A stretch of 64,000 bases of DNA, from contig JBFWUM010000012.1 in the NCBI GenBank assembly GCA_050247255.1, forward strand, positions 22,716-86,715. Reading direction: 5' to 3'. Within the stretch, counting starts at the first letter, position 1. Every line of letters begins with the position of its first letter. This document shows, piece by piece, positions 12,733 to 56,768 of the stretch. Below the pieces are notes generated by a model. That model ran no database searches and was not told the DNA's origin. It saw only the letters and a program-made list of their open reading frames with translations. This DNA comes from Vicinamibacterales bacterium. GTDB taxonomy: Bacteria; Acidobacteriota; Vicinamibacteria; Vicinamibacterales; UBA2999. A program made the translations under genes and the position numbers.

Positions 12733-13839
12733 TCACGCACGGAAGCGGCGCCAGTCGATGCCGTGCTTCCGCACCTTGTAGTTGAAGATCCGCTCGGTCG
12801 TCGCCAGCAGCCGGGCGGCCCTGGCGCGGCTGCCGCGCGCGCTCTTCAGCGCGTCCTGCAGCGCGTCCCGCTCCACCGCGTCGATCATGTCCTGCAGCGT
12901 CTGGCGGATCGGCGTCGCGCTCGATTCGGCCGTCTGCAGGGTGGGTGGCAGGTGATGACCGTGGATGACGCTGGCATCGCACACCACCACGGCCCGCTCG
13001 ATGGCGTTCGAGAGCTCGCGGACGTTGCCCGGCCAGTGGTAGGCGACGAGCATGTCGATGGCCGGCGTCGAGATGCGCCGCACGCTCTTCTTGTGCTCCC
13101 GCGCGAACTTCTCCAGGAAGTGGTCGGCCAGCAGCAGGATGTCCGGCTTCCGCTCCCGCAGCGGCGGCACGAAGATGCTGAAGACGTTGAGCCGGTAGAA
13201 GAGATCCTCGCGGAACTGGCCCGCGGCCATCGCCTTCTCGAGGTCGCGGTTGGTGGCGGCGATCAGCCGGATGTTGACCCGCAGCGTCTGGGTGCCGCCG
13301 AGCCGCTCGAACTCGCGCGTCTGCAGCACCCGCAGCAGCTTCACCTGCATCGCCGCGGACAGCTCCCCGATCTCGTCGAGGAACAGCGTGCCGCCGTCGG
13401 CCAGTTCGAACCGCCCCTTCTTCATGCCGCGCGCGCCGGTGAAGGCGCCGGCCTCGTGGCCGAACAACTCGGATTCCAGAAGATCCGCCGGCAGCGCGGC
13501 GCAGCTCACCTTGATGAACGGCTTGCGCGCGCGCGGCGAGTTGTAGTGGATGTCCTGCGCGAGCAGCTCCTTGCCGGTCCCCGACTCGCCGCGCAGCAAC
13601 ACGGTGGTGGTGCTGCCGGCCACCTGCGACACCTGCTCCTGCACCTGCCGCATCGGCCCGCTGTTGCCAACCAGGTTGCTGAAGGCGAAGCGATCCTGGA
13701 GCTGCCGCCGCAGCGCCGCGTTCTCCTCGGCCAGGCGCTGGCGCTCCGTCTCGCTCGCAGCCAGGCGCGACTCGAGACGCTGGAGTTCGGCGTCGACCCC
13801 CTCAGTCGTGCGGATGGCAGCAGCAGCGCGCAATGACAT
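12733..13839 (-). CDS. Sigma-54-dependent transcriptional activator (bEBP) with no sensory/receiver domain; short N-terminal coiled coil
   Basis: Walker A GESGTGKE, GAFTGA loop (HEAGAFTGARG), ELFGHE, and a C-terminal Fis-type HTH (ARAARLLATTERIFNYKVRKHGI). Only ~55 aa (LQRLESRLAASETERQRLAEENAALRRQLQ) precede the AAA+ core. Confidence 0.9.
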   Translation of the reverse strand: MSLRAAAAIRTTEGVDAELQRLESRLAASETERQRLAEENAALRRQLQDRFAFSNLVGNSGPMRQVQEQVSQVAGSTTTVLLRGESGTGKELLAQDIHYNSPRARKPFIKVSCAALPADLLESELFGHEAGAFTGARGMKKGRFELADGGTLFLDEIGELSAAMQVKLLRVLQTREFERLGGTQTLRVNIRLIAATNRDLEKAMAAGQFREDLFYRLNVFSIFVPPLRERKPDILLLADHFLEKFAREHKKSVRRISTPAIDMLVAYHWPGNVRELSNAIERAVVVCDASVIHGHHLPPTLQTAESSATPIRQTLQDMIDAVERDALQDALKSARGSRARAARLLATTERIFNYKVRKHGIDWRRFRA

Positions 13840-13875
13840 GACGATCCCCGTTGATTACGCCTGCCCTATCCGTTG

Positions 13876-13891
13876 AGCAAGCGGCATTCCA
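13876..13891 (-). promoter_or_regulatory. Candidate sigma-54 promoter (-24/-12) of the activator gene
   Basis: Minus strand reads TGGAAT-GCCGC-TTGCT, with GG-N10-GC spacing as in TGGCAC-N5-TTGCW. It lies ~37 nt upstream of ATG 13839. Confidence 0.35.
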
Positions 13892-14009
13892 GTCCTGCCA
13901 CGCCTGGATCGGCGATTTCAGGCCGTTTTTTGTTCCGGCCTGGTCGGCAGGCCTTCAAGTTTGTTGGTTCACACGCCTGGCGCCACAAAGACGTCGCCAG
14001 AAATGTCTC

Positions 14010-19932: not shown

Positions 19933-20666
19933 AGGAAGTACCTCTCCGTGAGCGTGAAGCCGCGGGCGTTCTCGGGTCTCGACAGCCGGCACTCATCGTC
20001 CGCGGCCGGCGGTGCCACGCGCCGGACCGACAGCGCGGCCGGCTTCGGGTCATAGTGCGCGTTGGGATCGAGCGGGTGCTGGCAGGTGTTGAGGATGACC
20101 AGCACGTTCATCTCGGCGCGCAGCTCCACGTGACTGCCGGCCGCCGAGTGGCCGGCCACGAAGACCATCCGCCCGGCGTCGTCCACCTGCACCTTGCTGA
20201 ACAGGTTGAGCGGGGCGACCATGTCGCGCTCGCCCAGGCCGTACTTCGCCAGCTCGATGACGAAGCTGTCGAACGCATTTCGGTGACAGGCGTTGAGGTG
20301 CTCCTGGTACCGCGCGCCGCCGTACTTGGCCTCGACGAGCGCGGCGTTGGCACACCCGCTGAGCGGATCGTGCCAGCCGACGCTGTCGCTGGTCATCGAG
20401 CAGAGGATGCGCCCCATGTCGGAATAGAGCACGAACCCGCGTGTGAGGCGCGCGATGTGCTGCGCCTTCAGCGTGTCCGGCATGTTGTACCGCTCGGTCG
20501 GGTTGTCGGCGTTGTAGAACAAGGCTCCGACATTGGCGCCGCCCGCGACATCCGTGATGCGCAGCGCCGTGCCGCGCTTCAACACGTGCGACCAGGTCGC
20601 GCCCGGCTCTACCCGATCGTCGAACAACGGAATGTGTGGGCCGGCGTCAGCCGGCCCGGATTCCAT
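19929..20666 (-). CDS. Urea-carboxylase-associated protein, DUF1989 family (type 1; carboxyguanidine deiminase subunit-like)
   Basis: [36 protein letters not shown] and NTCQHPLDP. Paralogous to the next gene. ATG 20666 shares one nt with the upstream stop; ATG 20693 is an alternative. Confidence 0.8.
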
Positions 20667-21664: not shown

Positions 21665-21666
21665 TT

Positions 21667-34259: not shown

Positions 34260-34327
34260 CGAGAGGAACCTCCGAAATAGCAAAACGGCGAATGGACGGA
34301 TGCCAGTCCGCGGATGCCGGCGTGTGG

Positions 34328-34343
34328 TGCAAGCGAAATGCCC
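34328..34343 (-). promoter_or_regulatory. Candidate sigma-54 promoter (-24/-12) of the TonB-receptor-to-allophanate-hydrolase array
   Basis: Minus strand reads GGGCAT-TTCGC-TTGCA (consensus TGGCAC-N5-TTGCW, correct GG-N10-GC spacing). The -12 element is ~68 nt upstream of ATG 34259. Confidence 0.5.
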
Positions 34344-34432
34344 CGCGTCGCACACGCGCCCGTGGCCGGATAAGTCGTTGTCGCAACGACGGTTGTCGCG
34401 CGGCGCGCCCGCGCGATCGAAGCCTGCGCGTG

Positions 34433-34448
34433 CGAACACAAATGTTCG
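34433..34448. promoter_or_regulatory. Palindrome CGAACA-CAAA-TGTTCG; candidate enhancer (UAS) site
   Basis: Perfect 6-4-6 dyad ~100 bp upstream of the -24 element at 34343. A near-identical GAACA-N4-TGTTCG with a similar GC-rich flank occurs at 49496-49510, at a similar distance from a second sigma-54-type promoter. Confidence 0.4.
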
Positions 34449-34632
34449 TCGGCGCGGCGAACGACACATCGATGTTGGAATTCGATCTCGCGCGGACGGC
34501 GGCGGCGGCGACGGCGACGCGCGGCGATGCGGTATCTGCCGGCGGCGACGGACACTTCTGTCGATGCGACGCGCGCGCGGGCACACATTCGTCTGTAGCC
34601 TGCGGTGCGCAGAGACGCGATACTGCGTCGCG

Positions 34633-36819: not shown

Positions 36820-37048
36820 GCGGGTCGGCCGGCGGGAGAAGCATCCGGCTGGCGGGAACGCCCCGCCAGCCGGTGCCCGTTGGAGGAGAGATACGCGTTA
36901 CATGAACGCGCGGGACGTCTCTCCAGAGAGCAAGCCGACTGCCACCTTCGGCCGTGACGGCCGGACACCACATTTCAGGCGTTTTTCCGATTGTTTTCGG
37001 TGTTTTCCCGCCGGTGCGGGTTCCCGCGGAACGCCGACAGAAACGTGG
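36703..37048 (+). repeat. 346-bp direct repeat, copy A (last 117 nt of the DUF5916 gene + 229 nt downstream)
   Basis: 344/346 identical to 53189-53534 at a constant offset of 16486. The mismatches are at 36725 and 37001. Weaker similarity continues ~45 nt further. Confidence 0.9.
36845..36873 (+). terminator. GC-rich hairpin downstream of the DUF5916 gene (no U-tract)
   Basis: CCGGCTGGCGGG-aacgc-CCCGCCAGCCGG, a 12-bp perfect stem 26 nt after the stop codon. Duplicated at 53331-53359. Confidence 0.4.
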
Positions 37049-37095
37049 TAATCGCTGGCTGCCCGCACAAAGACGAAAGATCGCCCGGCACACCG

Positions 37096-39221: not shown

Positions 39222-40868
39222 TCACGGAAGAGACGGTTGTGGCACGGCGGCGCCGTCCTTGCGCGGGTCGGACGCCCCGTAATTGACGTCCGTGGTGCAG
39301 TCGCGCATGACGCTCTGACCACCACCGACGAGACTGGAGAAGCTGCCCAGCACCTCGACATCGTGCCCCCGCGCGGCCAGCTCCGCCCGCACGTGGAGCG
39401 GAACGCGCGATTCGACCATCACGTCGCAGCCGTTGAAGGTCAGCTTGGTCACCCGCGGCGCCTCCAGCGCCTCTTGGATGTTCATCCCGTGGTCGACGAC
39501 GTTGGAGACGAACTGCGCGTGTGCCTGCGCCTGGTTCCAGCCGCCCATGATGCCGAAGGCGATGTTGACGCCGCGCCCGGACATGAAACCCGGGATGATG
39601 GTGTGTAACGGCCGCTTGCGCGGGGCCAGCGCGTTCGGGTGCCTGGGATCGAACTTGAAGAGACCGCCGCGGCTCTGCAGCACGAAGCCCGCGCCCTCGG
39701 GAACGACACCGGAGCCGAAATTGGCAAAGTTGCTCTGGATGAGCGACACCATGTTGCCCTCGCGATCGGCGACGCTCAGGTAGGTGGTGTCGCCCCCGTG
39801 GTCGGGGAGCCCCGAGGGCACCTCAGGGTTCGCCTGCTCCGGGTCGATCCGCGCGGCGCGCTCCAAAGCGTATTCCTTCGACAGCAGCGTCTCGGGGGTC
39901 AGGTGGAACGCCGGGTCGGCGACGTGGCGTGCCAGATCGGCGTAGGCCAGCTTCTTGGCCTCGATGATCGCGTGGAGCGTCTCCGCCGAGCCTGGGCCGT
40001 AGATGCCGAGGGAGAACGCCTCGAGAATGTTCAGCATCATCAACGCCGCGATGCCCTGTCCGTTGGGCGGCAGTTCATAGATGGTCCAGCGGCGATAGGA
40101 CGTCGCCAGCGGCGTGACCCACTCGGCGTCGTACTCGGCGAGGTCGGCTGACACGAGCGCGCCGCCGTGCCCGCGCGAACAGCGGAGGATCCGCCGCGCC
40201 ACTTCGCCGCGATAGAACGTCTCGGAGCCCTCTTCACCGAGTAAGCGGTAGGTTCCGGCCAGATCCACGTTCCGAAACAGGTGGCCGGTCCGCGGAATAC
40301 GTCCGCCGGGCACGAACACCCGCGACGCGACCGGGTCGGTGCGCAGCAGGGCTTCACTGCCCTTCCACTCGGCCGCGGTCATCTCGGCGACCGGAAACCC
40401 CTCGTCCGCCACGTGTGCGGCCGACGCCAGCAGATCCCTGAAGGGACGGCGCCCGAAGCGCTCGTGCAGCTTCGCCCAGGCGGCGACGGCGCCTGGGACG
40501 GTGACCGAGTTGATCCCGCTCTGAGGCATCGACGACATCCCGCGCGCCTGGAGCGCCTCGATACTCAGCGCGGCTGGCGCCCAGCCGCTCCCGTTGATCC
40601 CGTGCAGCCGTTCCGTGTCGGCCTCGTAGACGAGGGCGAACAGGTCGCCGCCGATGCCGTTCATCATCGGCGCGACCACCCCCATCATCGCGTTGGCCGC
40701 GATGGCGGCGTCCACCGCATGGCCGCCGGCTGCCAGGATCGAGGCGCCGGCCTGCGAGGCGAGTGGGTGCTCGCTGGCGACCACGCCACCGACGTGCATC
40801 ACCATGGAGCGCCCCTGGTTGCGCTCGATCGCCGTGCGAACGTAGTCCGCTGTGACTCCCACGGGCAT
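39222..40868 (-). CDS. ggt: Gamma-glutamyltransferase family protein
   Basis: 548 aa. ASEHPLASQAGASILAAGGHAVDAAIA, and the autoprocessing/catalytic Thr context HGGDTTYLSVADREGNMVSLIQSN. No obvious signal peptide. Confidence 0.9.
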   Translation of the reverse strand: MPVGVTADYVRTAIERNQGRSMVMHVGGVVASEHPLASQAGASILAAGGHAVDAAIAANAMMGVVAPMMNGIGGDLFALVYEADTERLHGINGSGWAPAALSIEALQARGMSSMPQSGINSVTVPGAVAAWAKLHERFGRRPFRDLLASAAHVADEGFPVAEMTAAEWKGSEALLRTDPVASRVFVPGGRIPRTGHLFRNVDLAGTYRLLGEEGSETFYRGEVARRILRCSRGHGGALVSADLAEYDAEWVTPLATSYRRWTIYELPPNGQGIAALMMLNILEAFSLGIYGPGSAETLHAIIEAKKLAYADLARHVADPAFHLTPETLLSKEYALERAARIDPEQANPEVPSGLPDHGGDTTYLSVADREGNMVSLIQSNFANFGSGVVPEGAGFVLQSRGGLFKFDPRHPNALAPRKRPLHTIIPGFMSGRGVNIAFGIMGGWNQAQAHAQFVSNVVDHGMNIQEALEAPRVTKLTFNGCDVMVESRVPLHVRAELAARGHDVEVLGSFSSLVGGGQSVMRDCTTDVNYGASDPRKDGAAVPQPSLP

Positions 40869-45424: not shown

Positions 45425-46798
45425 TTAGGCATCGGCGGTGGCCGTGTCGAGATCGAGCACCCCGGTGCTATCGCCGAAGCTGTCTACCGGCAGGTCCGCC
45501 CGCTGCACCAGGTGCAGGAGCAGATTCGACATCGGCGTGCCCATCGGCGTCGCGATGTGCCGGTTCCCTTTCATGCCGTTGGCGCCCCCGACGAGCGCGA
45601 TGGGCAGATCCATGTGCGAGTGGATGTTGCCGTCGCTCATGCCGCCGCCGATCATCAGCAGCGAGTGGTCGAGCAGCGTGCCGTCCCCGTCGCGCGTGTT
45701 CCGCAGCTTCTCGACCAGCTGGGCGAACAGCTGCACGTGCCACGTGCAGAGCTTGGTGTACTTGGCCAGCGTCTCGGGGTTGTTGCTGTGGTGGGACATC
45801 CCGTGGTGTGACTCGTTCAGGCCGATCTCCGGATACATCCGGGCCCGCTGCTCGGCGCCGAACATGAAGGTGCTGACGCGCGTGATGTCCGCCTGGAAAG
45901 CCAGGAACTGCAGGTCGAACATCAGCGTGGCGTGATCGTCGAAGCGCTCAGGCGTGCCGATGCCTGGCCGCTCGTATTCGGGGAGAGGCGATGCCGCGTT
46001 GCGCGCCTCCGCCTGCTGGATGCGCCGCTCGACCTCGCGCAGGACGTCCAGGTAGTCGCCAACCGTCGATCGGTCCGCCGGCCCGAGCCTCGCGCGCAGG
46101 CTGGCCATCTCGTCGATGGCCGAATCGAGAATGCTCTTGCGCGTGCGCGTCGCGGCGAGCTGCTCCGCTGTGGAGCCGCCGTCGCCGAACAGCTGCTCGA
46201 ACACCAGGCGCGGACTGCTCTGCGTTGGCAGCGGCGTCGTCGGCGTCGCCCATGACAGCGTCGTGCCGTAGGCGCAGCTGTACCCCGTATCGCAGCCGCC
46301 GGTGACCGAGTTGGGCAGGATCGCGAGCTCCAGTGACGGCAGCGGCGTGTCGCGGCGCGCCTGCGCCGCCAGAACCTGATCGACCGATACCCCGGCGCGC
46401 AGATCCGAGCCTTCCGTCCGCTTGATCTTCGTCCCGGTCAGCCACGTTCCCGTGCTCCGGGTGTGATCGCCGTTGCCGTCGCCGAGACTCTCCGACGAGC
46501 GGTGGTGCAGGCCGCTGACGACCGTGAGCCGATCGCGGTAGGGCTCGAGTGGCGACAGGATCAACGAGAAGTCGAAGTCGGCGCCGACCGTCGTCGGCTT
46601 CCAGTAGTTCACACCGGTGTGATTCATCGCCACGCCGTTGGGCATGTAGAAGAACCCGTAGCGGCTGACGGGCCTGGCTGCGGTCTTCTGCTGCGCCGTG
46701 AGCGCCGGGACCATCGCGTCCAGCAGCGGCAACGCCAGGCTCACGCCGAGACCGCGCAGGACGGTGCGGCGCGACAACGCCTTCTTCGTGATGATCAT
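45425..46798 (-). CDS. DUF1552 domain protein (HXXSHH family), Tat-exported
   Basis: MIITKKALSRRTVLRGLGVSLALPLLDAM, and the family signature ESHHGMSHHSNNPE (HxxSHH). Confidence 0.85.
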   Translation of the reverse strand: MIITKKALSRRTVLRGLGVSLALPLLDAMVPALTAQQKTAARPVSRYGFFYMPNGVAMNHTGVNYWKPTTVGADFDFSLILSPLEPYRDRLTVVSGLHHRSSESLGDGNGDHTRSTGTWLTGTKIKRTEGSDLRAGVSVDQVLAAQARRDTPLPSLELAILPNSVTGGCDTGYSCAYGTTLSWATPTTPLPTQSSPRLVFEQLFGDGGSTAEQLAATRTRKSILDSAIDEMASLRARLGPADRSTVGDYLDVLREVERRIQQAEARNAASPLPEYERPGIGTPERFDDHATLMFDLQFLAFQADITRVSTFMFGAEQRARMYPEIGLNESHHGMSHHSNNPETLAKYTKLCTWHVQLFAQLVEKLRNTRDGDGTLLDHSLLMIGGGMSDGNIHSHMDLPIALVGGANGMKGNRHIATPMGTPMSNLLLHLVQRADLPVDSFGDSTGVLDLDTATADA

Positions 46799-49338
46799 GA
46801 TTCGGATCTCCTCATTTGGAAGGGAGTGCTCTTGACGATGCCGAGCACGAGCGCGGCGAAGCGGTAGTCCGATGTCCTGGCTTCGCGCAGGATGGCGCGG
46901 ATAGCCGGTGCGTCGTAGTAGTCGACGCCACGGCCGATGGCATAGGTCAACAGCTTTCCGGTGAGGTTCACCAGAAACTGATCACCATGCTTGACCAGGA
47001 CGTCCCGCAACCCGGGCAATCCGTCGATCGCCGAGCCGTCGGGATAGACGCCCGAGGTGTCGAGGGGCTCGAAGTTCTCATCGTAGGTGCGGTACTTGCC
47101 GACGGCGTCGAAGCTCTCGAGGGCGAAGCCGATCGGATCCATCAGCTTGTGGCACGAGGCGCACACCGGGTTCGCCCGGTGCTGCTCGACCCGTTGCCGC
47201 ATCGTGCGGACCTTGGTGACCTTTTCCCCGTTCTCCGCCAGGCCGGGGACGTTCGGCGGCGGCTCGGGCGGCGGCGCGCCGAGGATGTTTTCCAGCACCC
47301 ACTTGCCGCGGACCACCGGCGAGGTCCGGTTCGGGAAGGCGGTGACCGTGAGGATGCTGCCCTTGCCGAGCAGCCCGCGCCGCGGACTGTCATCGGGCAG
47401 GGTGACGCGGCGGAAGCCGATCCCCTTGATGTTCGGGATGTCGTAGTGTCGCGCCAACCGTTCGTTGACGAATGTCCAGTTGGCGGTCAGCAGCTCGAGC
47501 GCCGGCCGGTCCTCGCGCACGATGCTGTCGACGAACAGCTCGGTCTCGCGCTGGAACGCACGCGCCAGCGTGTCGCCGTAGTCGGGGAACAGGAACGGGT
47601 CCGGCACGATGTCCGGCAGGCGCCGCAACTGCAGCCACTGCCCGGCGAAGTTGTCGATCAACGCGCTCGACTTTGGGTCGGCCAGCATCCGGCGCACCTG
47701 GGCCTCGAGCACGGCCGGCTCGCGCAGGCGGCCCACTGTGGCCAGGTCGAGCAGCTCGTCGTCAGGAATGCTGCTCCAGAGGAAGAACGACAGCCGTGAG
47801 GCCAGCTCGACGTCGTCGACACGGTAGACGGGAGAGACGGCGGCCCTGAGCGGCGCGAACTCGGTCCGGAAGAGGAACGACGGGCTGACGAGAATCCGCT
47901 GCAGCGCCAGTTCGATCCCGCTGTCGAAGGTGCCGCCGGCGCGTCCCTGCGCGAAAAAATCGAGCAGCACCGCGAGGTCGGCGTCGGTGGGCGTGCGCCG
48001 GTAGGCGCGCCGCGCCAGCGCGATGAGAATCGTCCGCGCGCACGTGGGCTCGTCCGCCGGCCCTGCCGGCCGGCAGACGAAGACCCGCCGGTAACTGGGC
48101 GACGACTCGGCGCCGCCGGGGTTGACGGGGCCGAGAATCTCGAGCTCGCGCAGCGCCGCGCCTTCCCGCGTTTCGCGCTCGTCGTCGATGCCGCGGCCGA
48201 TGTACGGCTTCAGGAACGGCTTACGAAACCCTTCCGACACGGCATTGGTCTTGGCCAGGAAGGTGGCGCGGATCTCGTGCACGCCGGCCGTTAGCGGCAC
48301 GCTGACCACCCAGTCCTCGTCGACGTCCTTCGGCGCCGCCTCGCTGCGATCGATGCGCTGGGGGCGACCCTGCGACACCTGGCGCTCGAGGTTGAGGTCG
48401 GTGTTCGGCGTCGCCGGCAGGGTGAAGACCTGCACGCGGACGCCGTCGACGCTGATCTCCAGGTGCTGGTCGCCGAGATAGTGCGGGATGTCGTAGTCGA
48501 GGCCGCGGCCGATGCGAGCCTTGATCAGGTATTCGCCGTCGCGCGGGGCGAAGTAATCGACCCGGTGGCCGCCGCGCGTACCCGGCGGCATGCCGTCGAG
48601 TCGCACGTCCTGGTCGAGTTGGTCGGGTACGCGGAAGAAGTCCCCGTTGGGCGGCGCCGGCGTCCCGAGCGCGAGGCGGGCAATCTTCTGCGCCGCACTG
48701 AGGTAGCGATCCGTGAGCAGCGGCGACAGCTTGAGCACGCCGGCGATGTTGTCGAAGCCGTAGCTCACTTCGTCGGTCGGCAACAGCGCCGACGCATCGA
48801 TGTCGAGCGCGAGCAGATCGCGGATCGCATTCTGGTACTCGGCTCGGTTCAGGCGATGGAACGGCTCGGTGCGACCGGGGTTCGGCGCCGCCGTCGCGGC
48901 CCGGTCGAGCGCGGCCTCGAGCGACACGCGGAACTCGTCGATCGCCGGCTGCGCCGGACGCGGCATGCCGGCCGGCGGCATCAGGCCGGCGCGCAACTTG
49001 ACCGCCACCTTCTCCCACTCCCTGGCGTGGGCGGCGACGTCGGTGAGATCCAGCAGATCGAGTGCCAGGCCGCCGGTCTTCAACCGCTGGTTGTGGCAGG
49101 TGACGCAATAGCGATCGACGAAGGCCCGCGACGGCCCCGCCGGCTCCGCCTGCCGCGACGCCAGCGCCAGGGCGCCCAACGGGTCGCCGCCGCGCGCCGG
49201 AGCGCCGGCGATCGCCACGGCCACCGGCGCCGGGGCGCTCGCCGTGGTCGAGGAGGCCGCCGAAACCGCCACCAGACAACCCGTGAGGATCGAAGCGAGG
49301 AGAGAAGGCAGAGAGAACCGGCGCCATCGCATCGTCAT
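46795..49338 (-). CDS. DUF1592/DUF1588/DUF1595/DUF1587/DUF1585-type multidomain protein with CxxCH motifs (usual partner of DUF1552)
   Basis: FVDRYCVTCHNQRLKTGGLAL near the N-terminus and NPVCASCHKLMDPIGFALE near the C-terminus. Start placed at ATG 49338 (MTMRWRRFSLPSLL); the ORF-track GTG at 49359 would lie almost on the predicted transcription start. Confidence 0.8.
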   Translation of the reverse strand: MTMRWRRFSLPSLLASILTGCLVAVSAASSTTASAPAPVAVAIAGAPARGGDPLGALALASRQAEPAGPSRAFVDRYCVTCHNQRLKTGGLALDLLDLTDVAAHAREWEKVAVKLRAGLMPPAGMPRPAQPAIDEFRVSLEAALDRAATAAPNPGRTEPFHRLNRAEYQNAIRDLLALDIDASALLPTDEVSYGFDNIAGVLKLSPLLTDRYLSAAQKIARLALGTPAPPNGDFFRVPDQLDQDVRLDGMPPGTRGGHRVDYFAPRDGEYLIKARIGRGLDYDIPHYLGDQHLEISVDGVRVQVFTLPATPNTDLNLERQVSQGRPQRIDRSEAAPKDVDEDWVVSVPLTAGVHEIRATFLAKTNAVSEGFRKPFLKPYIGRGIDDERETREGAALRELEILGPVNPGGAESSPSYRRVFVCRPAGPADEPTCARTILIALARRAYRRTPTDADLAVLLDFFAQGRAGGTFDSGIELALQRILVSPSFLFRTEFAPLRAAVSPVYRVDDVELASRLSFFLWSSIPDDELLDLATVGRLREPAVLEAQVRRMLADPKSSALIDNFAGQWLQLRRLPDIVPDPFLFPDYGDTLARAFQRETELFVDSIVREDRPALELLTANWTFVNERLARHYDIPNIKGIGFRRVTLPDDSPRRGLLGKGSILTVTAFPNRTSPVVRGKWVLENILGAPPPEPPPNVPGLAENGEKVTKVRTMRQRVEQHRANPVCASCHKLMDPIGFALESFDAVGKYRTYDENFEPLDTSGVYPDGSAIDGLPGLRDVLVKHGDQFLVNLTGKLLTYAIGRGVDYYDAPAIRAILREARTSDYRFAALVLGIVKSTPFQMRRSES

Positions 49339-49376
49339 ATGACTCGTGACTCCAGGCACGTGATGTCCCGACCCTG

Positions 49377-49392
49377 AGCAAGACGGGTTCCA
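49377..49392 (-). promoter_or_regulatory. Candidate sigma-54 promoter (-24/-12) of the DUF1592-to-TauE array
   Basis: Minus strand reads TGGAAC-CCGTC-TTGCT (TGGCAC-N5-TTGCW spacing), ~40 nt upstream of ATG 49338. Confidence 0.45.
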
Positions 49393-49495
49393 TCCACCGG
49401 AGTACGGCCGGCGGCGCGCAATGATCCAAGCGGCGCGTTTGGGCGCAATTCACGCGCGGCATCCGGCGGCATGAGGTGCCGCCGCGCGCCCCGAT

Positions 49496-49510
49496 GAACA
49501 TTGCTGTTCG
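49496..49510. promoter_or_regulatory. Palindrome GAACA-TTGC-TGTTCG; candidate enhancer (UAS) site
   Basis: 5-4-5 dyad ~110 bp upstream of the -24 element at 49392. It has the same half-sites and a similar flank (TGTTCGTG-CGGCGCG versus TGTTCGTC-GGCGCGG) as 34433-34448. Confidence 0.4.
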
Positions 49511-49987
49511 TGCGGCGCGCGAGGGCACACAAGAACGTCATGCCGGTACAACCGGCGAGGTCCTCCCTCATCAGCGGGCACGGGAGGCGCGAGGCGTCCG
49601 GCCGCTGGCGCGCAGCGCAGACCCGCGGACCGAACGAATGGACGTTTCTGTCCGCTTCCAGCTGCGCGGTTCACCCAGGTCGAGGTCACGGACATGACCG
49701 CGAGCGCGCACCGACGCGCGTGCGCGATGACAATCGACGGTCTCGTTCGGATCCGCGTGTTGAAGACATTTGCGTCGAGCGCCTGCGGCCGACGAGGCTC
49801 GTGGCCGCGGCGGCCGATGCCGACATCGGCCGCGAGCGCTCGGCAACAGAACCGTCGGCCCCGCCGGCGCGTTCGCGACAAGCGCGTAGGGTTGACGCGC
49901 GCCGGGCGGCGCGTCTCGGCCGGATCGCCGTCGGCCGCACGCATTCCGCAGGAAAAAACCACGCGCCGGCCGTGTCCGATCGGGCGC

Positions 49988-50003
49988 TGGCCCATCACTT
50001 GCT
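49988..50003 (+). promoter_or_regulatory. Candidate sigma-54 promoter (-24/-12) of the second TonB-dependent receptor
   Basis: Plus strand reads TGGCCC-ATCAC-TTGCT, ~95 nt upstream of ATG 50098. Confidence 0.45.
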
Positions 50004-50097
50004 CGTGGGCCCAGCACGTTCACAACGTGATGGCGAACGCCGCGATCGACGCGGCGGTCCGACGCCATCGTTGCAATTCGGCAAGGGAGGTTCACCG

Positions 50098-52998
50098 ATG
50101 GTCCGATTGATCGGTTCGTTGATCGCATGCGCCATGCTGTCGTCGAGCCTCGCCGCCCAGCAGAACGCCACGCTGCAGGGCACAGTGCTCGACGAGCAGA
50201 AGGCCGTGATGCCCGGAGCCACAGTCATGCTGACGGAGACCGGTACCGGCCGCCAGTCGTTCGAGGTGACGACGCAGACCGGGCGCTACCGCTTCGAGAA
50301 CCTGCCTCCGGGGCAGTACGCACTCCGCGTCGAGTTGCAGGGATTCGCCACCGTGGAGATTCCGCGCGTTGAGCTCCTCGTCGGCGCCAACGCCACGGTG
50401 CCGGCGATCACGATGCAGCTGGGGACGCTGACCGAGACGATCATGGTCACCGGAGAGGCCCCGCTTGTCGATGTCACGTCATCGCAGGTGGCGGGCAACA
50501 TCGACCGGCGACAGATGGCCGAACTGCCGCTGCAGGGACGCAACTGGCAGGAGCTGTCGCTGATGGTGAAAGGGGTGACGGCCAACAACGCCGGCAACAC
50601 GCCCGGCGCCATCGACAACCAGTTCCAGCTGAACCTCGATGGCCAGCAGATCACCCAGCGCGTCGCCGGCTCGGGCTTCGGTCAGCCCAAGGTCAGCCGG
50701 GAGGCGATCGCGGAGTTCCAGATCGTCACCAACATGTTCGATATCACGCAGGGGCGGTCGACTGGCATGCAGGTGCAGGCCATCTCTCGTTCCGGCACGA
50801 ACGACCTGCGCGCGTCGGTGTTCGGCTTCTTCCGCAGTGACAAGCTCAATGCCGCCGACCCGATCGCCGGTGTGGTACTGCCGTTCGAGAACCAGCAGGT
50901 GGGCGGGACGCTCGGCGGGCCGATCCTGCGCGACAAGGCGCACTTCTTTTTGTCCTATGAATACGAGCGCCAGCCGCAGGACGTGTTCCTGGCGCCGACC
51001 CGCCTGCCGCACCAGACCTTCCAGTTCGAGACGAAAGACGTCAACAAGAACTACCTGGGGCGCGTCGACTACCAGTTTTCGTCGACCGACAGCCTGACGC
51101 TGCGCGGGCAGCGCTGGGCCTTCGACAACCCGTTCTCGATCTCGAGCGGAACGTCGCACCCGTCGACCGCCGACAACCTGCGATCCTTCGCCACCAACAT
51201 CGGCGGCACCTGGACGCACGTGACGAGCGCGAACCTGACGATGCAGATCAAGGGAGGCGTGAACCGCTTCTCCTGGTACAACGATGCCCTGCCATCGATG
51301 GACGTGCCCTTTCACAACACGCCGTTCTTTGTGCCCGAGCTCAGCTTCCCGGGCCTGACGATCGGCGGCGCCTCCAACTATCCCAACGACACGTGGCAGA
51401 ACACCTACAGTGCCCGCGCCGATCTCAACTGGCACTCCGGCGATCACGACGTAAAGTTCGGCGGCGAGTTCCTGCGCGTCCGCGACACCAAGGAATGGTC
51501 GCTGAACCGCCGCGGCACCTACGTCTTCTCAACGCGTCCGTCGGACGAGGAACTGGAACGTCGCTTCCCCGCCGACGCGTGGGACGATCCTGCGCGATGG
51601 GACATCAGCGGCCTCGAACCGTACCTGCTGCGGTTCGACATCAACTTCCACCCGGACTACCTGATTGATATCCCCCGTCCCACGTTCGCCGCATGGTTCG
51701 GCGACAACTGGCGCGCGACGGAGAACCTGTCCATCAACGTCGGCGTGCGCTGGGATGCAGACTGGGGGGCCACCGACCCGCCAAACGTCACCGAGACCGT
51801 GATTTTGATCGACAACGGACGCGAGTCGGGCGACTTTGGCTTCAAGACCGGCATTCGCGACCTCAACAACGTCGCGCCGCGCGGCGGCTTCGCCTATAAC
51901 GTTGGCGGCGGCGGTGACTTCGTGATCCGTGGCGGTACGGGTATCTACTTCAATACGCCGGTCTCGAATGTCACCTACAGCCACCAGTACTTCAACCAGG
52001 CCATCTCGGCGACGATCACGCCGAATGGCCCTGGCTTCATGGAGAACCCCACGCGCGGCATCACCGCCGAGGACTACCTCTCCGGTGCCGTCGCCGCGCC
52101 GATACAGGCGCCCCGGGTCATCGCCAGCGACTACGTGATGCCGTACAGCTGGCAGAGTTCGCTGGGGTTTCAGAAGCAGCTCGGCGCAGCGATGGGATTC
52201 GACATGGACCTCACCTATCTCGACGAGCGCAACCAGGTGCGCGGCCGCGATCCCAACCTCTTCTACGACCCCGTGACCGGCTACAACCTGAACCCGTCGA
52301 CGGCGGGAAGGCCCAATCCGGCGTACGGCCAGGTGCAATGGATGGAGAGCACCGGACGCACCGAGGCCCTCCTCCTCGCCAGCTCCTTCACTCGCCGGTT
52401 CAGAAGCAACTTCCAGGGCAGCGTCACTTACACGCGGACGCTGAAGAACAACAACAACACGACCGGGTTCGGCATTCAGGCCGACAACCAGTTCGACCTC
52501 GACGCGGACTGGTCGCGTTCGGCCGACTTCCAGCGGGACACGCTTCGCGCCAACGGCATCGTCAACCTGCCGTGGCAGACAACCGTCGCTGGCTCGTTCC
52601 TCTACGGCTCTGGCACCTACTACAACGCGACGCGCAGCGGCAGGCCGTTCAACAAGCCTGGAACCAACCGGCTCAACATCGGCGCGCCGATCGTGATCCC
52701 CGAGGCGATGCTGGATCGATGGGAGGGGCCGGATGTCATCGCCACCGGCGCCGTGTGGCCGCGCAACGCGCTGCGCGGTCTCCCCCTCTACAAGGTGGAC
52801 GTCCGCGTGTCGAAAGCGATTAGGGCCGGCGGCGTCAACGTCACCTTGCTCGGCGAAGTGTTCAACGTGTTCAACCGGAAGAACTACGGCAGCTTCACCA
52901 CCCAGCTTGACTCGGCGAATTTCGGGAAGCCGACCGCCAACTCCGGCAACGCCTATGGGCCACGATCCGGCCAGGTCGGGTTCCGCGTCGAGTTCTAG
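50098..52998 (+). CDS. TonB-dependent receptor with N-terminal carboxypeptidase-regulatory-like domain
   Basis: Start ATG 50098 (AGGGAGG RBS). Signal MVRLIGSLIACAMLSSSLAAQ, GATVMLTETGTGRQ..TQTGRYRFENLPPGQYALRVELQGF, and a terminal ..GFRVEF. Confidence 0.85.
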   Translation: MVRLIGSLIACAMLSSSLAAQQNATLQGTVLDEQKAVMPGATVMLTETGTGRQSFEVTTQTGRYRFENLPPGQYALRVELQGFATVEIPRVELLVGANATVPAITMQLGTLTETIMVTGEAPLVDVTSSQVAGNIDRRQMAELPLQGRNWQELSLMVKGVTANNAGNTPGAIDNQFQLNLDGQQITQRVAGSGFGQPKVSREAIAEFQIVTNMFDITQGRSTGMQVQAISRSGTNDLRASVFGFFRSDKLNAADPIAGVVLPFENQQVGGTLGGPILRDKAHFFLSYEYERQPQDVFLAPTRLPHQTFQFETKDVNKNYLGRVDYQFSSTDSLTLRGQRWAFDNPFSISSGTSHPSTADNLRSFATNIGGTWTHVTSANLTMQIKGGVNRFSWYNDALPSMDVPFHNTPFFVPELSFPGLTIGGASNYPNDTWQNTYSARADLNWHSGDHDVKFGGEFLRVRDTKEWSLNRRGTYVFSTRPSDEELERRFPADAWDDPARWDISGLEPYLLRFDINFHPDYLIDIPRPTFAAWFGDNWRATENLSINVGVRWDADWGATDPPNVTETVILIDNGRESGDFGFKTGIRDLNNVAPRGGFAYNVGGGGDFVIRGGTGIYFNTPVSNVTYSHQYFNQAISATITPNGPGFMENPTRGITAEDYLSGAVAAPIQAPRVIASDYVMPYSWQSSLGFQKQLGAAMGFDMDLTYLDERNQVRGRDPNLFYDPVTGYNLNPSTAGRPNPAYGQVQWMESTGRTEALLLASSFTRRFRSNFQGSVTYTRTLKNNNNTTGFGIQADNQFDLDADWSRSADFQRDTLRANGIVNLPWQTTVAGSFLYGSGTYYNATRSGRPFNKPGTNRLNIGAPIVIPEAMLDRWEGPDVIATGAVWPRNALRGLPLYKVDVRVSKAIRAGGVNVTLLGEVFNVFNRKNYGSFTTQLDSANFGKPTANSGNAYGPRSGQVGFRVEF

Positions 52999-53044: not shown

Positions 53045-53188
53045 GTTCCCGCGCCATCCCACCCAGTATCACGTCCTCGCGATCCCGATCGGTTGAGTGC
53101 GATCTGTCGGCACGACCCCCGAACATGGCGCGCAGCAGTGGAGCTCCTGTGCGAGCTTCGGCAAGCGATACGGCCGGCAAACCATCCT

Positions 53189-53305
53189 GGCAGCGAGCTG
53201 TTCGTCGTCTACAACGAGGAACGCGAACAGCAGCGCACCGGCGTCCTGCCCGGCGCGGCGCATCGATCGTTCATCGTGAAAGTGAATCGGCTGTTCCGCT
53301 TCTGA
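53189..53305 (+). pseudogene. 3'-terminal remnant (last 38 codons + stop) of a DUF5916-like gene
   Basis: Encodes SELFVVYNEEREQQRTGVLPGAAHRSFIVKVNRLFRF, versus ..ELFVVFNEE.. at the end of 34633..36819. Sequence upstream of 53189 is unrelated, so no intact gene is present. Confidence 0.7.
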
Positions 53306-53534
53306 GCGGGTCGGCCGGCGGGAGAAGCATCCGGCTGGCGGGAACGCCCCGCCAGCCGGTGCCCGTTGGAGGAGAGATACGCGTTACATGAACGCGCGGG
53401 ACGTCTCTCCAGAGAGCAAGCCGACTGCCACCTTCGGCCGTGACGGCCGGACACCACATTTCAGGCGTTTTTCCGATTGTTTTCGGCGTTTTCCCGCCGG
53501 TGCGGGTTCCCGCGGAACGCCGACAGAAACGTGG
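53189..53534 (+). repeat. 346-bp direct repeat, copy B
   Basis: 344/346 identical to 36703-37048. Confidence 0.9.
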
Positions 53535-53587
53535 AAACCGCCGACGTCCCCATACAAAGACGAAGGATCGCCCTCCGGACCGTGCCG

Positions 53588-56296
53588 TTAGAACGGCGAC
53601 ACGTCCGAGCTCGTGCCGCCGGCGGCCGGAATGTACGCCTTCTGCACGTAGTCCATCACCATCCGGTCGGCGCTGAAGCGCCACCCCAGCGTGCGAATGG
53701 CCCGTGTGACCCGCGCGATCCACGCCCGCGGCAGCCCGTCGGCATCGCGATCGTAGTAGAGCGGCACAACCTCCTCGCGCAGCGTCCGCAGCAGCGCCGA
53801 CGCGTCACGGGCGTCATGCTCGTCGATCGACGCGTGCGTCTCGCCCATGCCGATCGCGAAGCCGTTCAGGCCGTCGTAGGCCTCGGCCCACCAGCCGTCG
53901 AGCACCGACAGGTTGAGCGCGCCGTTGAGGACGACCTTCTGGCCGCTGGTGCCGCACGCCTCGAGCGGCCGCCGCGGATTGTTCAACCAGACGTCGACCC
54001 CCTGCACCAGATGGCGGCCGACGTTGATGTCGTAGTCCTCGATGAACACCACCTTGCCGATGAAGCGCGGGTCGCGCGTCAGCCGGGCGATCTCGCGCAG
54101 CACGTGCTTGCCCGGACCGTCCTGTGGATGCGCCTTCCCGGCGAACACCAGCTGGATCGGCCGCTGCAGGTCGTTGACCAGGCAGGCGATCAGCTCGATG
54201 TCGCGCAGCAGCAGGTTGGCGCGCTTGTAGGTGGCGAACCGGCGGGCGAAGCCGATGGTCAGCGTATCGACGCTCAGCGCCCGCCGCAGCGGCGCGATCA
54301 CCGCCGCCGGCTCGCCGCGCCGTTCGGCCTGGCCGACGATGCGCCGGCGCGTGAACGCGATCAGGCGGTTCTTCAGGATCTGGTGGGCTTCCCACAGCTC
54401 GCCCGCGTCGAGCCGCTCGACGTCGTCCCAGAACCGCTCCCCGTCCCGGCTGCGCGCCTCCCACCCGGGGCCGAGGTGGCGCTCGTAGACCTGCCGCATC
54501 TGCGGCGCCAGCCAGCTGCGGACGTGCACGCCGTTGGTGACGTGGCCGATCGGCACGTGGTCTTCGCGGAAGCCCGGGTGCAGCCCGGTCCACATCGCCC
54601 GCGAGACGTGGCCGTGGAGCGACGACACCGCGTTGGCGCGGCGGCTGGTCTTCAGCGCGAGCACCGTCATGCAGAACGCTTCGCCGCCGTCGTGCGGGTT
54701 GACGCGGCCGTGGGCGAGGAACGCCTCGCGCGACAGGCCGAGCGCATCGCGCAGCGGGCCGAGGTGCTCCTCCACCAGGTCAGCGGGAAACCGATCGTGG
54801 CCGGCCGGCACCGGCGTGTGCGTCGTGAACACGACCTGCGCGGCGACGCGGCGCTGCGCCTCGGCGCAGTCGATGCCCTCGCGCTCCATCCGCTGGCGCA
54901 CCAGTTCGAGCGCCGCGAAGGCGCTGTGCCCTTCGTTCAGGTGCACCACGCCCGGCACGATGCCGAGCTGGTTGAGGGCGCGCACGCCGCCGACCCCGAG
55001 CAGCAGCTCCTGGCGGATGCGGGTGCGCGAGTCGCCGCCGTAGAGCCGCGCCGTCAGGTCGCGGTCCTCGGCGCCGTTGCCCTCGATGTCCGAGTCGAGC
55101 AGGTAGAGCGTCACCCGGCCGACCTGCACCTGCCACACGCGCGCGGCGATCGGCCCGGTGCGCGTCTCGATCGAGACCCTCGCCGGCACGCCGTCCGGCC
55201 GCAGCGCCGGGGTGATCGGCAGCCGGGCGCCGTCGATGTCGAGATACTCCTCGAGCTGCCAGCCGTCGGCGTCGAGGTGCTGCCGGAAATACCCCTGGTC
55301 GTAGAACAGTCCGACGCCGACGAGCGGGATGCCGAGATCGGACGCGCTCTTCAGGTGATCGCCGGCCAGGATGCCGAGGCCGCCGGAGTAGATCGGCAGC
55401 GATTCGTGCAGCCCGAACTCCGCCGAGAAATACGCGACCGGACGCGCCGCCAGCACGCTGGCGTGGCGCGCCCCCCAGGTATGGGTCGACGCGAGGTACT
55501 CGCGCAGGCGGCGGTACGCCTGGTTGATGCGGCCGTGCATCGCCAGCTCGGATGCCCGCTCCTCGACCTCGGCCGCCGACATCTCGTCCAGCAGGACGAT
55601 CGGGTTCTGGCCGCAGTCGCGCCACCGCACCGGGTCGAGGTCGCGGAAGATCCCCGGCGACTCGCCGTCCCACGACCACCACAGGTTCTGCGCGAGGACC
55701 CTGAGCCGCTGGTGCACCGGCGCGACGAAGTGACCGAGCGCCCGCGCTTCGGTCACCAGCGGCGCCACCTGGACGCCGGCCGTCGTCAGCATCCGCACGT
55801 CGTCGTCGGTGAACGGCCGTTCGCTGGCCGTCTGCACCACGAGCACGCCCTGGAGGACGCCGCGCTCGATGATCGGCACGCCGAGGAACGTGCGGTACGG
55901 GTCCTCGCCGGCCTCGCGGAAGTACTTGAAGCGCGGATGGTGCATCGCGTCCTGCACCACGATCGGCCGCGCCTGCTCGGCGACGAGGCCGGCCAGCCCC
56001 TCCGAGGTCCGCATCCGGACGCGGCCGACGCTTTCGGGCCGCAGGCCGATGGTCGCGGCCAGCACCAGCGTCGTGCGATCGGCCTCGAGCAGGTAGACCG
56101 AACAGACGTCGGTCCCGAACCGGCGCTGAATCAGGTGGACGATGTTGGTCAGGGTTTCCGAGGGATTGCCGCTGCCCGACACGAGGTGGCCGATCTCCTC
56201 GAGCGTCCAGAGCAGCGACGGTTGTTCCGGCAGGGGAATCGACGGGTCCGTCACGGTCCAGCCGGGCCAGCAAGATCGCTGCCCCGTTTCGCGCAC
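53588..56296 (-). CDS. glgP: Alpha-glucan (glycogen/maltodextrin) phosphorylase with an N-terminal GAF domain
   Basis: N-terminal ~170 aa is GAF-like (FGTDVCSVYLLEADRTTLVLAATIGL..GLAGLVAEQARPIVVQDA..FLGVPII). This is followed by the DUF3417-type NLWWSWD and the PLP-lysine context EACGTSGQKVVLNGALNLSVLDGWW. Confidence 0.9.
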   Translation of the reverse strand: MRETGQRSCWPGWTVTDPSIPLPEQPSLLWTLEEIGHLVSGSGNPSETLTNIVHLIQRRFGTDVCSVYLLEADRTTLVLAATIGLRPESVGRVRMRTSEGLAGLVAEQARPIVVQDAMHHPRFKYFREAGEDPYRTFLGVPIIERGVLQGVLVVQTASERPFTDDDVRMLTTAGVQVAPLVTEARALGHFVAPVHQRLRVLAQNLWWSWDGESPGIFRDLDPVRWRDCGQNPIVLLDEMSAAEVEERASELAMHGRINQAYRRLREYLASTHTWGARHASVLAARPVAYFSAEFGLHESLPIYSGGLGILAGDHLKSASDLGIPLVGVGLFYDQGYFRQHLDADGWQLEEYLDIDGARLPITPALRPDGVPARVSIETRTGPIAARVWQVQVGRVTLYLLDSDIEGNGAEDRDLTARLYGGDSRTRIRQELLLGVGGVRALNQLGIVPGVVHLNEGHSAFAALELVRQRMEREGIDCAEAQRRVAAQVVFTTHTPVPAGHDRFPADLVEEHLGPLRDALGLSREAFLAHGRVNPHDGGEAFCMTVLALKTSRRANAVSSLHGHVSRAMWTGLHPGFREDHVPIGHVTNGVHVRSWLAPQMRQVYERHLGPGWEARSRDGERFWDDVERLDAGELWEAHQILKNRLIAFTRRRIVGQAERRGEPAAVIAPLRRALSVDTLTIGFARRFATYKRANLLLRDIELIACLVNDLQRPIQLVFAGKAHPQDGPGKHVLREIARLTRDPRFIGKVVFIEDYDINVGRHLVQGVDVWLNNPRRPLEACGTSGQKVVLNGALNLSVLDGWWAEAYDGLNGFAIGMGETHASIDEHDARDASALLRTLREEVVPLYYDRDADGLPRAWIARVTRAIRTLGWRFSADRMVMDYVQKAYIPAAGGTSSDVSPF

Positions 56297-56468: not shown

Positions 56469-56768
56469 ATGGCGCACGGGTTGCTCTGCCGGTTCGACAT
56501 GGCCTTTGCTGCTCTCGTCGATCGCGTGCGCGACGACTTTCTCGAACTACCGAACCTGGAGCTCTCGCTGGCCCAGGCCGTGCGTCTCTGGGGGCTCGGC
56601 GCCGACGACGCGCGGTTCGTGCTCGATTCGCTGGTCGATGTGGGCTTCCTGCGCTGGACGCCGCGGCGCACGGTCGTGCGCGCCAGCCGCGCCTCGCTGC
56701 CGGCCCTGCCGGAGCCATCCCACATTTCTGTCTATGCGGTCAGCCGGCGCCACAAGTCTGTCGGATAG
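56469..56768 (+). CDS. Small hypothetical protein (99 aa, or 89 aa from the second Met), possibly winged-helix-like
   Basis: GC3-rich codons throughout. [62 protein letters not shown]. Its 3' end overlaps the ATP-grasp gene start by 35 nt. I recognised no family. Confidence 0.45.

Follow-up and report, generated by a model that had tools for sequence, protein, structure and literature searches.

A probable bidirectional sigma-54 control region with paired dyads between an outer-membrane barrel gene and a DUF1592 gene of a Vicinamibacterales bacterium

What does the longest non-coding stretch in a 64,000-nucleotide piece of a Vicinamibacterales genome (contig JBFWUM010000012.1, positions 22,716 to 86,715; the whole of this piece is referred to here as the window) do for the two divergent genes that it separates? 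The gap, which ends on the right at position 50097, measures 759 bp from the better-placed ATG (49338) of the gene on its left and 738 bp from a GTG at 49359; the initial annotation, which was made from the sequence alone, had given the shorter figure and had called the gap the longest intergenic stretch, as it indeed is on the gene map of the window (the next two non-coding stretches are 589 and 523 bp). The window has a G+C content of 68%, its proteins are closest to those of metagenome-assembled genomes labelled Vicinamibacterales (phylum Acidobacteriota), and its sequence is also found in landfill-metagenome runs. Contigs from two independent runs of this kind reproduce the gap sequence, one of them with five single-nucleotide polymorphisms in the gap, none of which falls in any dyad or promoter. 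Our answer is that the gap is quite probably a bidirectional sigma-54 control region with pairs of enhancer sites, which would be bound by the bacterial enhancer-binding protein (bEBP) encoded at 12733-13839 or by a close paralogue with the same helix-turn-helix (HTH). The gap holds no gene of its own and is a control region ordinary in kind but well preserved. The motifs in question are present, enriched, conserved and held in a fixed geometry, and regulator and sites are located together in other genomes. The two ends of the gap are made up as follows.

46795..49338, minus strand: DUF1592/PSD-family gene with the Pfam domains PSD3, PSD5, PSD4, PSCyt3 and PSD2.
49377..49392, minus strand: left promoter P_L, TGGAACCCGTCTTGCT, sigma-54-type (GG-N10-GC), reading TGGAAC-CCGTC-TTGCT.
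49988..50003, plus strand: right promoter P_R, TGGCCCATCACTTGCT, sigma-54-type, reading TGGCCC-ATCAC-TTGCT.
50098..52998, plus strand: outer-membrane beta-barrel (OMP) gene with the Pfam domains CarboxypepD_reg and OMP_b-brl_4 and the ribosome-binding site GGGAGG.

Divergent sigma-54-type promoters had been predicted at 49392-49377 (minus strand) and 49988-50003 (plus strand), and both elements are present there and conserved in relatives. In each of them the GG and GC doublets are exactly 10 bp apart in a TGGCAC-N5-TTGCW-like context, and each is correctly oriented and kept in orthologous loci, a short distance upstream of its gene (P_L ends about 38 nt before ATG 49338, and P_R 94 nt before ATG 50098). 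The pattern TGG-N8-TTGCT occurs 7 times in the window against 0.86 expected, a number reached by 0 of 100 shuffles; since the matches at 36929 and 53415 are one duplicated sequence and the match at 21636 falls within the opening codons of a beta-propeller gene, this enrichment rests on about five independent sites. The remaining matches are intergenic and correctly oriented.

The conservation of the two elements is illustrated by loci encoding relatives of the OMP (62-84% protein identity), which were fetched with their flanks and comprise 24 non-redundant loci, the upstream DNA of which is not alignable to the window by BLAST. A TGGC..-N-TTGC element is found 26-210 nt before the ATG in about 21 of these 24 loci, in most relatives as TGGCC[CT]-N5-TTGC[TA] at 73-207 nt and in the 80%-identity group as TGGCAC-N5-TTGC at 26-35 nt. 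At the left promoter, TGGAAC or TGGACC followed by N5-TTGC[AT] precedes the DUF1592 gene, or an inserted gamma-glutamyltranspeptidase (GGT) gene, in five loci.

L001: P_L counterpart TGGAATCCAGCTTGCT
L082: P_L counterpart TGGAACCTGCCTTGCA
L085: P_L counterpart TGGAACCCGCCTTGCA
L086: P_L counterpart TGGACCCCGGCTTGCA
L080: P_L counterpart TGGACCTCACCTTGCT

Judged by this comparison, both -24/-12 elements are phylogenetic footprints. Gene order at the junction of the OMP and DUF1592 genes varies, loci L001, L002 and L080 differing from the window, L003 and L082; in some relatives a GGT gene is inserted between the two, and the sigma-54 element then precedes whichever gene comes first, while in L001 it stays directly before the DUF1592 gene, downstream of the GGT gene.

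As to the gene starts themselves, ATG 49338 is favoured by a GGAG 11 nt upstream and by the signal-peptide-like N-terminus that it gives to the DUF1592 protein, and the start of the OMP gene is fixed because a 966-residue database protein matches its product at 100% over the full length. This product, which had been described as a TonB receptor, has the two domains listed above, and some of its database relatives bear the name TonB-dependent receptor.

The initial annotation had further pointed to a GAACA-N4-TGTTCG dyad at 49496-49510 and again at 34433, and had likened it to an enhancer site. Both copies are present at these coordinates and exceed chance: the exact dyad GAACA-N4-TGTTC occurs 2 times in the window against 0.02 expected, 0 of 200 Markov resamplings reach 2, and it occurs once only in about 1 Mb of related loci. 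Upstream of P_L, two dyads can be distinguished.

49496..49509, no strand: dyad A, GAACA-TTGC-TGTTC, promoter-proximal candidate activator site of P_L.
49527..49540, no strand: dyad B, ACACA-AGAA-CGTCA, distal partner of dyad A, at -141.

Dyad A, which opens the stretch GAACATTGCTGTTCG-TG-CGGCGCG at 49496-49520, is centred 110 bp upstream of the T of the P_L TGG, and dyads A and B are 31 bp apart, centre to centre. The pair in the window (GAACAGCAATGTTC at -110 and the weak TGACGTTCTTGTGT at -141) lies one helical turn closer to the promoter than the pair of the relatives, six of which (L085, L086, L082, L080, L098 and L001) carry dyads at -119 and -150 from the P_L TGG, as exemplified by GAACGCGCGTGTTC with GCACATTTCTGTGG and by CGACAAGAGTGCGT with CGACATTCTTGATG. 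Dyad B scores 10 of 16 when taken alone, and was called on the strength of the relatives, in which a good dyad stands at -150, 31 bp upstream of the proximal dyad (for example GCACATTTCTGTGC in L086). The pair is attributed to P_L because its offset to P_L is fixed, whereas its distance to P_R varies (263-485 bp, with 263-305 bp in the relatives). Across loci the half-sites change together and their symmetry is kept, as in GCACA..TGTGC, GGACA..GGTCC and CAACA..AGTTG. The enhancer proposal may thus be retained in an amended form, in which the dyad, conserved at a fixed offset from P_L, would be one member of a tandem pair with a spacing of 30-31 bp.

The same association is seen when the fetched loci are taken together. 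Upstream (-180 to -75) of the sigma-54-like sites in these loci, ACA-N4-TGT ranks 2nd in an unbiased count over all 704 trinucleotide dyads, at a frequency of 13% versus 1% of control pieces (p = 2e-13, a value that overstates independence in that orthologous loci are phylogenetically related), and the 1st- and 3rd-ranked dyads are parts of one block, R2, which is described below for the right promoter.

In the window itself, four of the seven best dyad scores of the 64 kb fall within two gaps, the one at 49 kb and another at 34 kb, the latter containing the following elements.

34328..34343, minus strand: third sigma-54-type promoter, GGGCATTTCGCTTGCA, GGGCAT-TTCGC-TTGCA, before a second OMP gene.
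34434..34447, no strand: dyad GAACATTTGTGTTC (GAACA-CAAA-TGTTC), at -97 from the 34343 promoter.
34464..34477, no strand: dyad CAACATCGATGTGT (ACACA-TCGA-TGTTG), at -127, 30 bp from the 34434 dyad.
34550..34563, no strand: third dyad, GGACACTTCTGTCG, within the gap 34260-34632.

The tandem at 34434..34477 is the only one of its kind in the window under the dyad score (0.03 expected), and the first of its dyads lies in the stretch CGAACACAAATGTTCG-TC-GGCGCGG at 34433-34457. The 34343 promoter has a counterpart in L165, the one clear ortholog, where AGGCATGGGAGTTGCT starts 88 nt before the ATG. The distances of about 110 and 100 bp from dyad to promoter that had been put forward as shared agree with those measured, 110 bp at P_L and 97 bp at the 34343 promoter; the GGCGCG flank, also claimed as shared, is present at both sites and does not clearly exceed the GC-rich background or the extended palindrome around dyad A. 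The genes behind the 34343 promoter had been spoken of as the other array, beside the DUF1592 array. They do not form a DUF1592 array: the second OMP gene (30546-34259) comes first, and DUF1549/DUF1553 and DUF1501 genes come after it. Recent duplication was rejected as the origin of the shared dyad, the two gaps aligning at the dyad alone. The dyad at 34550-34563 is centred about 76 bp before the ATG of a DUF5916 gene and 213 bp from the OMP promoter, and no convincing -24/-12 element for the DUF5916 gene was found beside it.

The set of dyads proposed between the two promoters of the 49-kb gap has also to be extended, in that P_R appears to have a degenerate pair of its own, together with a conserved A/T-rich block.

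49844..49857, no strand: R1, CAACA-GAAC-CGTCG, degenerate distal site of P_R, at -137.
49876..49889, no strand: R2, CGACA-AGCG-CGTAG, degenerate proximal site of P_R, at -105, 32 bp from R1.
49943..49959, no strand: A/T-rich block ATTCCGCAGGAAAAAAC, 29-45 bp before the TGG of P_R.

R1 is in register with a conserved block (sACAAATCAGT / GGACAAAnnTGTkC) at -134 to -137 in OMP relatives, and R2 with the conserved block CGACAACGTTGTsGCTTT at -103 to -105; the ACA-N4-CGT degeneracy of both sites is common to the window and its closest relative, L080. Most OMP relatives have a TTTC-N5-6-GAAA-like block about 40-60 bp before the promoter TGG. Bends and sites of the IHF type are usually located at such a distance, 29-45 bp ahead of the TGG, and the block at 49943-49959 may accordingly serve as a DNA-bending site. 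The pairs at -110/-141, -137/-105 and -97/-127 (-119/-150 and -104/-135 in relatives) have the geometry of bEBP enhancers, in which usually two or more dyad-symmetric sites lie on one helical face some 80-200 bp upstream of the promoter.

Whether the gap contains anything other than these control elements was assessed from its reading frames, its RNA content and its folding. All open reading frames of at least 30 codons in the gap are rich in arginine, as the initial annotation had remarked, and none has relatives among 2.9 Mb of related loci, which led us to reject a hidden gene and to accept the gap as non-coding. The remnant of a GGT gene was considered, GGT being found between the clusters in L001, L002 and L080, and was likewise rejected, as the one match given by tblastn is the intact paralogue at 39222-40868, outside the gap. 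No Rfam family was detected in the gap at gathering or E-value thresholds, no tRNA was found, and simple scans of the gap gave no sigma-70-like promoter and no intrinsic terminator. Two palindromes were identified.

49476..49528, no strand: extended imperfect palindrome centred on dyad A (GTGCCGCCGCGCGCC ... GGCGCGCGAGGGCAC), inverted repeat I6.
49770..49846, no strand: GC-rich nested double-hairpin palindrome in the spacer between the promoter modules.

The DNA folds of the two have energies of -21.2 kcal/mol (z = -3.6) and -36.9 kcal/mol (z = -5.1), respectively. The first, like the dyads themselves, is situated between the two divergent promoters and so would be transcribed by neither; of the second, no further copy was found in the window or the fetched loci. 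The distance from P_L to P_R is about 170 bp longer in the window than in L082. It could be argued from these features that the dyads are a matter of chance or belong to a structural or repeat element (a hairpin, or one resembling repetitive extragenic palindromes), GC-rich DNA being full of palindromes and two strongly folding ones lying in the gap, or that the gap, which is about 250 bp longer than in relatives and in parts mildly periodic in its codon-position GC, hides a decayed gene or a small RNA. Such an origin is hardly credible given that the exact dyad is expected only 0.02 times and keeps its position in relatives, that the gap sequence has no other copy in the window, that Rfam matches, a GGT remnant and a terminator tail were sought in the gap and not found, and that its reading frames have no homologues in the related loci.

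A different objection, that the dyad is the operator of a conventional dimeric repressor or activator which is not a bEBP and which came to lie upstream of the promoters by happenstance, would account for the perfect palindrome of 14-16 bp, typical of many HTH dimers, and for an inverted repeat at 49476-49528 that is longer than a bEBP site needs. It is nevertheless very improbable, as an enhancer would account for the tandem spacing of 30 bp, for the fixed position at -95 to -150 from -24/-12 elements and for the location of such sites beside a bEBP gene in other phyla, and as overlap with the promoter would be expected of a repressor site.

If enhancer sites they are, which protein would read them? 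The initial annotation had tentatively named the bEBP encoded at 12733-13839.

12733..13839, minus strand: candidate activator, a 368-residue sigma-54 enhancer-binding protein with the Pfam domains Sigma54_activat, AAA_lid_14 and HTH_8.
13876..13891, minus strand: sigma-54-type element TGGAATGCCGCTTGCT, which ends 36 nt before the activator ATG.

The N-terminus of the candidate consists of a coiled-coil linker only, lacking a GAF domain, and the reading frame closes at 13854. NifA is its best match both among NCBIfam models and among PDB chains, with a score against the NifA model TIGR01817 of 421 bits, which is below the cut-off of 528.85. A GAF domain is present in nearly all closer relatives (identity of at least about 50%); the exception is the closest relative, that of locus L215, which is also short and GAF-less, has TGGAACGGCGTTTGCT at the same place as the 13876-13891 element and has GGACAAGTTTGTCT centred about 48 bp upstream of its TGG. 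In the window, the region upstream of the activator gene contains half-dyads only.

The evidence that ties this protein to the dyads comes from relatives at 55-75% identity, which are found in Holophagae, Myxococcota, KSB1, Planctomycetota, Fibrobacterota and other groups. In 24 of 76 relative loci there are 33 exact ACA-N4-TGT pairs against 0.05 expected, with a spacing of exactly 30 bp in almost all, and most of them closely precede the start of the relative's activator gene or closely follow its stop; sites of this type are thus found beside the genes of the candidate's own orthologs. In Holophagae the downstream pair (for example TTACAAATATGTAA and TTACATTTTTGTTG) is placed at -124/-94 from a sigma-54 promoter that heads an operon of a Gcw_chp porin and an ammonium transporter (Amt), offsets which nearly equal the -127/-97 of the window, and the recognition helix TTERIxNYK is common to the activator of the window and these relatives. 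Together, the adjacent pairs and the shared recognition helix support the suggestion that the 12733-13839 protein is the probable common bEBP. A collection-wide scan for pairs adds weak support: among the matches listed, a sigma-54-like site was found at the appropriate distance from 8 of 126 pairs versus 0 in control windows, one of the 8 being a Vicinamibacterales locus before a porin-like gene, and most of the matches listed are chance matches in unrelated taxa.

Several observations weigh against the proposed assignment as a whole. Dyad B and both P_R sites are weak (10-11 of 16) and were called mainly by their register with relatives; the distance from dyad to promoter is not uniform, with differences of about one turn between promoters (-110 in the window, -119 in relatives and -97 at 34434); and, in addition to the relatedness of the orthologous loci that affects the p-value given above, a search of sequencing runs found the window sequence in DNA runs only, with no RNA runs. 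The 64-kb window lacks rpoN and contains a bEBP gene (12733-13839), and the genome surely encodes other activators. The link to nitrogen rests on gene neighbourhoods in other phyla. Finally, the activator gene is 20-36 kb from its proposed targets and no ortholog of it is present in any fetched OMP or DUF1592 locus. These last two points, together with the half-dyads upstream of the activator's own gene and the many bEBPs that large acidobacterial genomes usually carry, would also be explained if promoters and dyads are real and another bEBP, a paralogue or an unrelated protein encoded outside the window, binds them, the 12733-13839 protein serving only the neighbourhood of the urea carboxylase gene. 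We regard this as unlikely, in view of the same dyad type with exact 30-bp spacing that flanks the activator's relatives in several phyla, of the recognition helix that they share with it, and of the close agreement between -97/-127 at 34434 and -94/-124 in Holophagae. The position of the activator gene also speaks against a role for it in the urea carboxylase neighbourhood alone, since it ends a co-directional run that starts at the 34343 promoter: minus-strand genes extend from this promoter through the DUF1549/DUF1553 and DUF1501 genes and the urea carboxylase cluster to the activator. The stretch 12733-23100 (minus strand) comprises this cluster, which is of the urea-amidolyase type and encodes an SSF transporter, a beta-propeller protein, two DUF1989 proteins, urea carboxylase and allophanate hydrolase, and the activator gene directly downstream of it.

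With the 12733-13839 protein as the favoured activator, the following mode of action can be proposed from the arrangement of the sites. Transcription would start leftward from P_L into the string headed by the DUF1592 gene, a long minus-strand series in which DUF1552, ankyrin, cytochrome c'-like and esterase genes are followed by further genes, including those for a formamidase/acetamidase, GGT, an MFS protein and a TauE protein, and rightward from P_R into the outer-membrane barrel gene. The enhancer of each promoter would consist of two 14-bp dyads, (G/C)(A/G)ACA-N4-TGT(T/G)(C/G), about 100-150 bp upstream of the TGG and separated by about three helical turns (30-32 bp between centres), with the A/T-rich block lying between the enhancer pair and P_R; the dyad at 49496-49509 would be the strong proximal site of P_L, and that at 34434 its equivalent at the third promoter. 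Dimers of the enhancer-binding protein would bind the two dyads of a pair from the same side of the helix, assemble into an active AAA+ oligomer, contact the closed sigma-54 holoenzyme by looping of the DNA and open it with ATP. The protein in question would most likely be the NifA-like activator (12733-13839) or else a close paralogue sharing its HTH.

The physiological role is likely to be nitrogen scavenging. This is suggested by the amt genes that adjoin the relatives of the activator and by the abundance in the window of genes for urea, amide and gamma-glutamyl catabolism (urea carboxylase, allophanate hydrolase, formamidase/acetamidase, GGT and an amidase), which would make nitrogen status the probable signal. 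Since the activator has no GAF sensor, has a sigma-54-type element of its own and stands at the end of the co-directional run from the 34343 promoter, it may be controlled through its synthesis, by a cascade or by autoregulation, or else through a partner protein.

A wider proposal, which we put forward tentatively and with rather more doubt than confidence, is that of an undescribed regulon spanning several phyla, in which a NifA-like GAF-AAA+-HTH family would read ACA-N4-TGT pairs exactly 30 bp apart, beside the regulator gene and beside amt/porin operons (Holophagae, Fibrobacterota/Chitinispirillaceae and others). The branch in Vicinamibacteria would have lost the GAF domain, gained a sigma-54 promoter and been recruited to OMP genes with DUF1592/DUF1552 and DUF1549/DUF1553/DUF1501 clusters and to amide and urea catabolism. 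Were this so, the 'planctomycete' PSD/PSCyt clusters would be nitrogen-scavenging machinery under a cascade activator without a sensor.

Other elements of the window deserve mention in their own right. A direct repeat of 391 bp, 96.7% identical between its copies, is found at 36697-37086 and 53183-53573. The first copy comprises the final 123 nt of a DUF5916/CBM9 gene and its 3' flank, and the second lies 185 bp after the OMP gene, where the window seems to keep only a 3' stump of DUF5916, because relative L081 has the full gene at this place. In two metagenome runs the repeat is covered at about double depth and forms a branch point of the contig graphs, and joins across it are not verifiable. 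Each copy carries TGGCAGTCGGCTTGCT on the minus strand (36929-36944 and 53415-53430), preceded by three or four phased A-tracts (GGAAAACACCGAAAACAATCGGAAAAACGCCTGAAATG) and followed by two hairpins that run back towards the 3' end of the upstream gene; this element could be a sigma-54-driven short antisense or small RNA, and it gave no Rfam family at the gathering threshold and no copy in related loci. Further to the right, the sigma-54-like TGGCGCACGGGTTGCT at 56470-85 is followed by an 89-codon reading frame (56499-56768) without a Pfam match, the 3' end of which contains an exact ACA-N4-TGT pair with 30-bp spacing (56722 and 56752; CCACATTTCTGTCT and CCACAAGTCTGTCG), just before a circularly permuted ATP-grasp gene. 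No -24/-12 element was found at the expected distance on either side of this pair, which might act as an enhancer from downstream or might be fortuitous, brought about by the repetition of an H-x-S-V peptide. At 53588-56296 (minus strand), a protein resembling alpha-glucan phosphorylase combines DUF3417 and Phosphorylase domains with a GAF domain at its N-terminus, a combination unrelated to the promoters discussed here.

Literature searches returned no description of sigma-54 regulation in Acidobacteria and none of the regulation of DUF1592/DUF1552 clusters, and to our knowledge almost nothing has been established on how transcription is controlled in Vicinamibacteria, a group abundant in soils of which few members have been cultured. 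The region offers a regulator-operator-promoter triple that can be tested, with a 14-bp dyad consensus, a fixed 30-bp pairing rule that makes the prediction of a regulon genome-wide specific, and a candidate activator, the relatives of which point to nitrogen acquisition; it also provides a functional handle on the widespread, uncharacterised PSD/PSCyt clusters (DUF1592, DUF1552, DUF1549, DUF1553 and DUF1501) and their partner outer-membrane barrels.

Compared with known systems, the arrangement matches in its geometry that of NtrC at glnAp2 of E. coli and Salmonella, where two dyad sites about three helical turns apart, at about 110 and 140 bp upstream of the start, support activation by oligomerisation and DNA looping in a nitrogen-scavenging regulon. 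The pairs described here, 30-32 bp apart and about 97-150 bp upstream of the TGG, resemble this enhancer; unlike NtrC, the activator of the window has no receiver domain (no Response_reg match) and scores 323 bits against the TIGR01818 cut-off of 558.6, and its putative half-sites are GAACA/TGTTC (GAAC-N6-GTTC) rather than the TGCACC-N5-GGTGCA of NtrC. The LexA 'Cheo box' (GAAC-N4-GTTC) was rejected on account of the N6 spacing found here. In its protein the system is nearer to NifA, the best-scoring family and the best solved structure, with matching linker, AAA+ and HTH regions; the relatives of the activator share the GAF-AAA+-HTH layout, and the sites lie, as those of NifA do, about 100-150 bp upstream of sigma-54 promoters. 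It differs from NifA in lacking the GAF domain, which looks like a secondary loss because the closest relatives carry one, in scoring below the cut-off of the NifA model, and in its presumed site, ACA-N4-TGT having the opposite polarity to TGT-N10-ACA and a shorter spacer. Sites of the NifA type were sought and rejected (none in either gap, and 3 in the window versus 5.1 expected), no nif genes are present in the window, and the relatives of the activator adjoin amt, not nif. The layout of short N-terminus, AAA+ and HTH_8 is that of activators of the PspF/HrpRS type, from which it would follow that activity is governed by a partner protein or through synthesis of the activator itself; unlike PspF, the activator scores 306 bits against a model cut-off of 444, and no pspA-like gene was seen beside it. 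The proposed mechanism is thus classical and the pairing of activator and site looks undescribed, so that what is gained from this textbook sigma-54 enhancer logic is annotation and the discovery of regulons, not new transcription biology.

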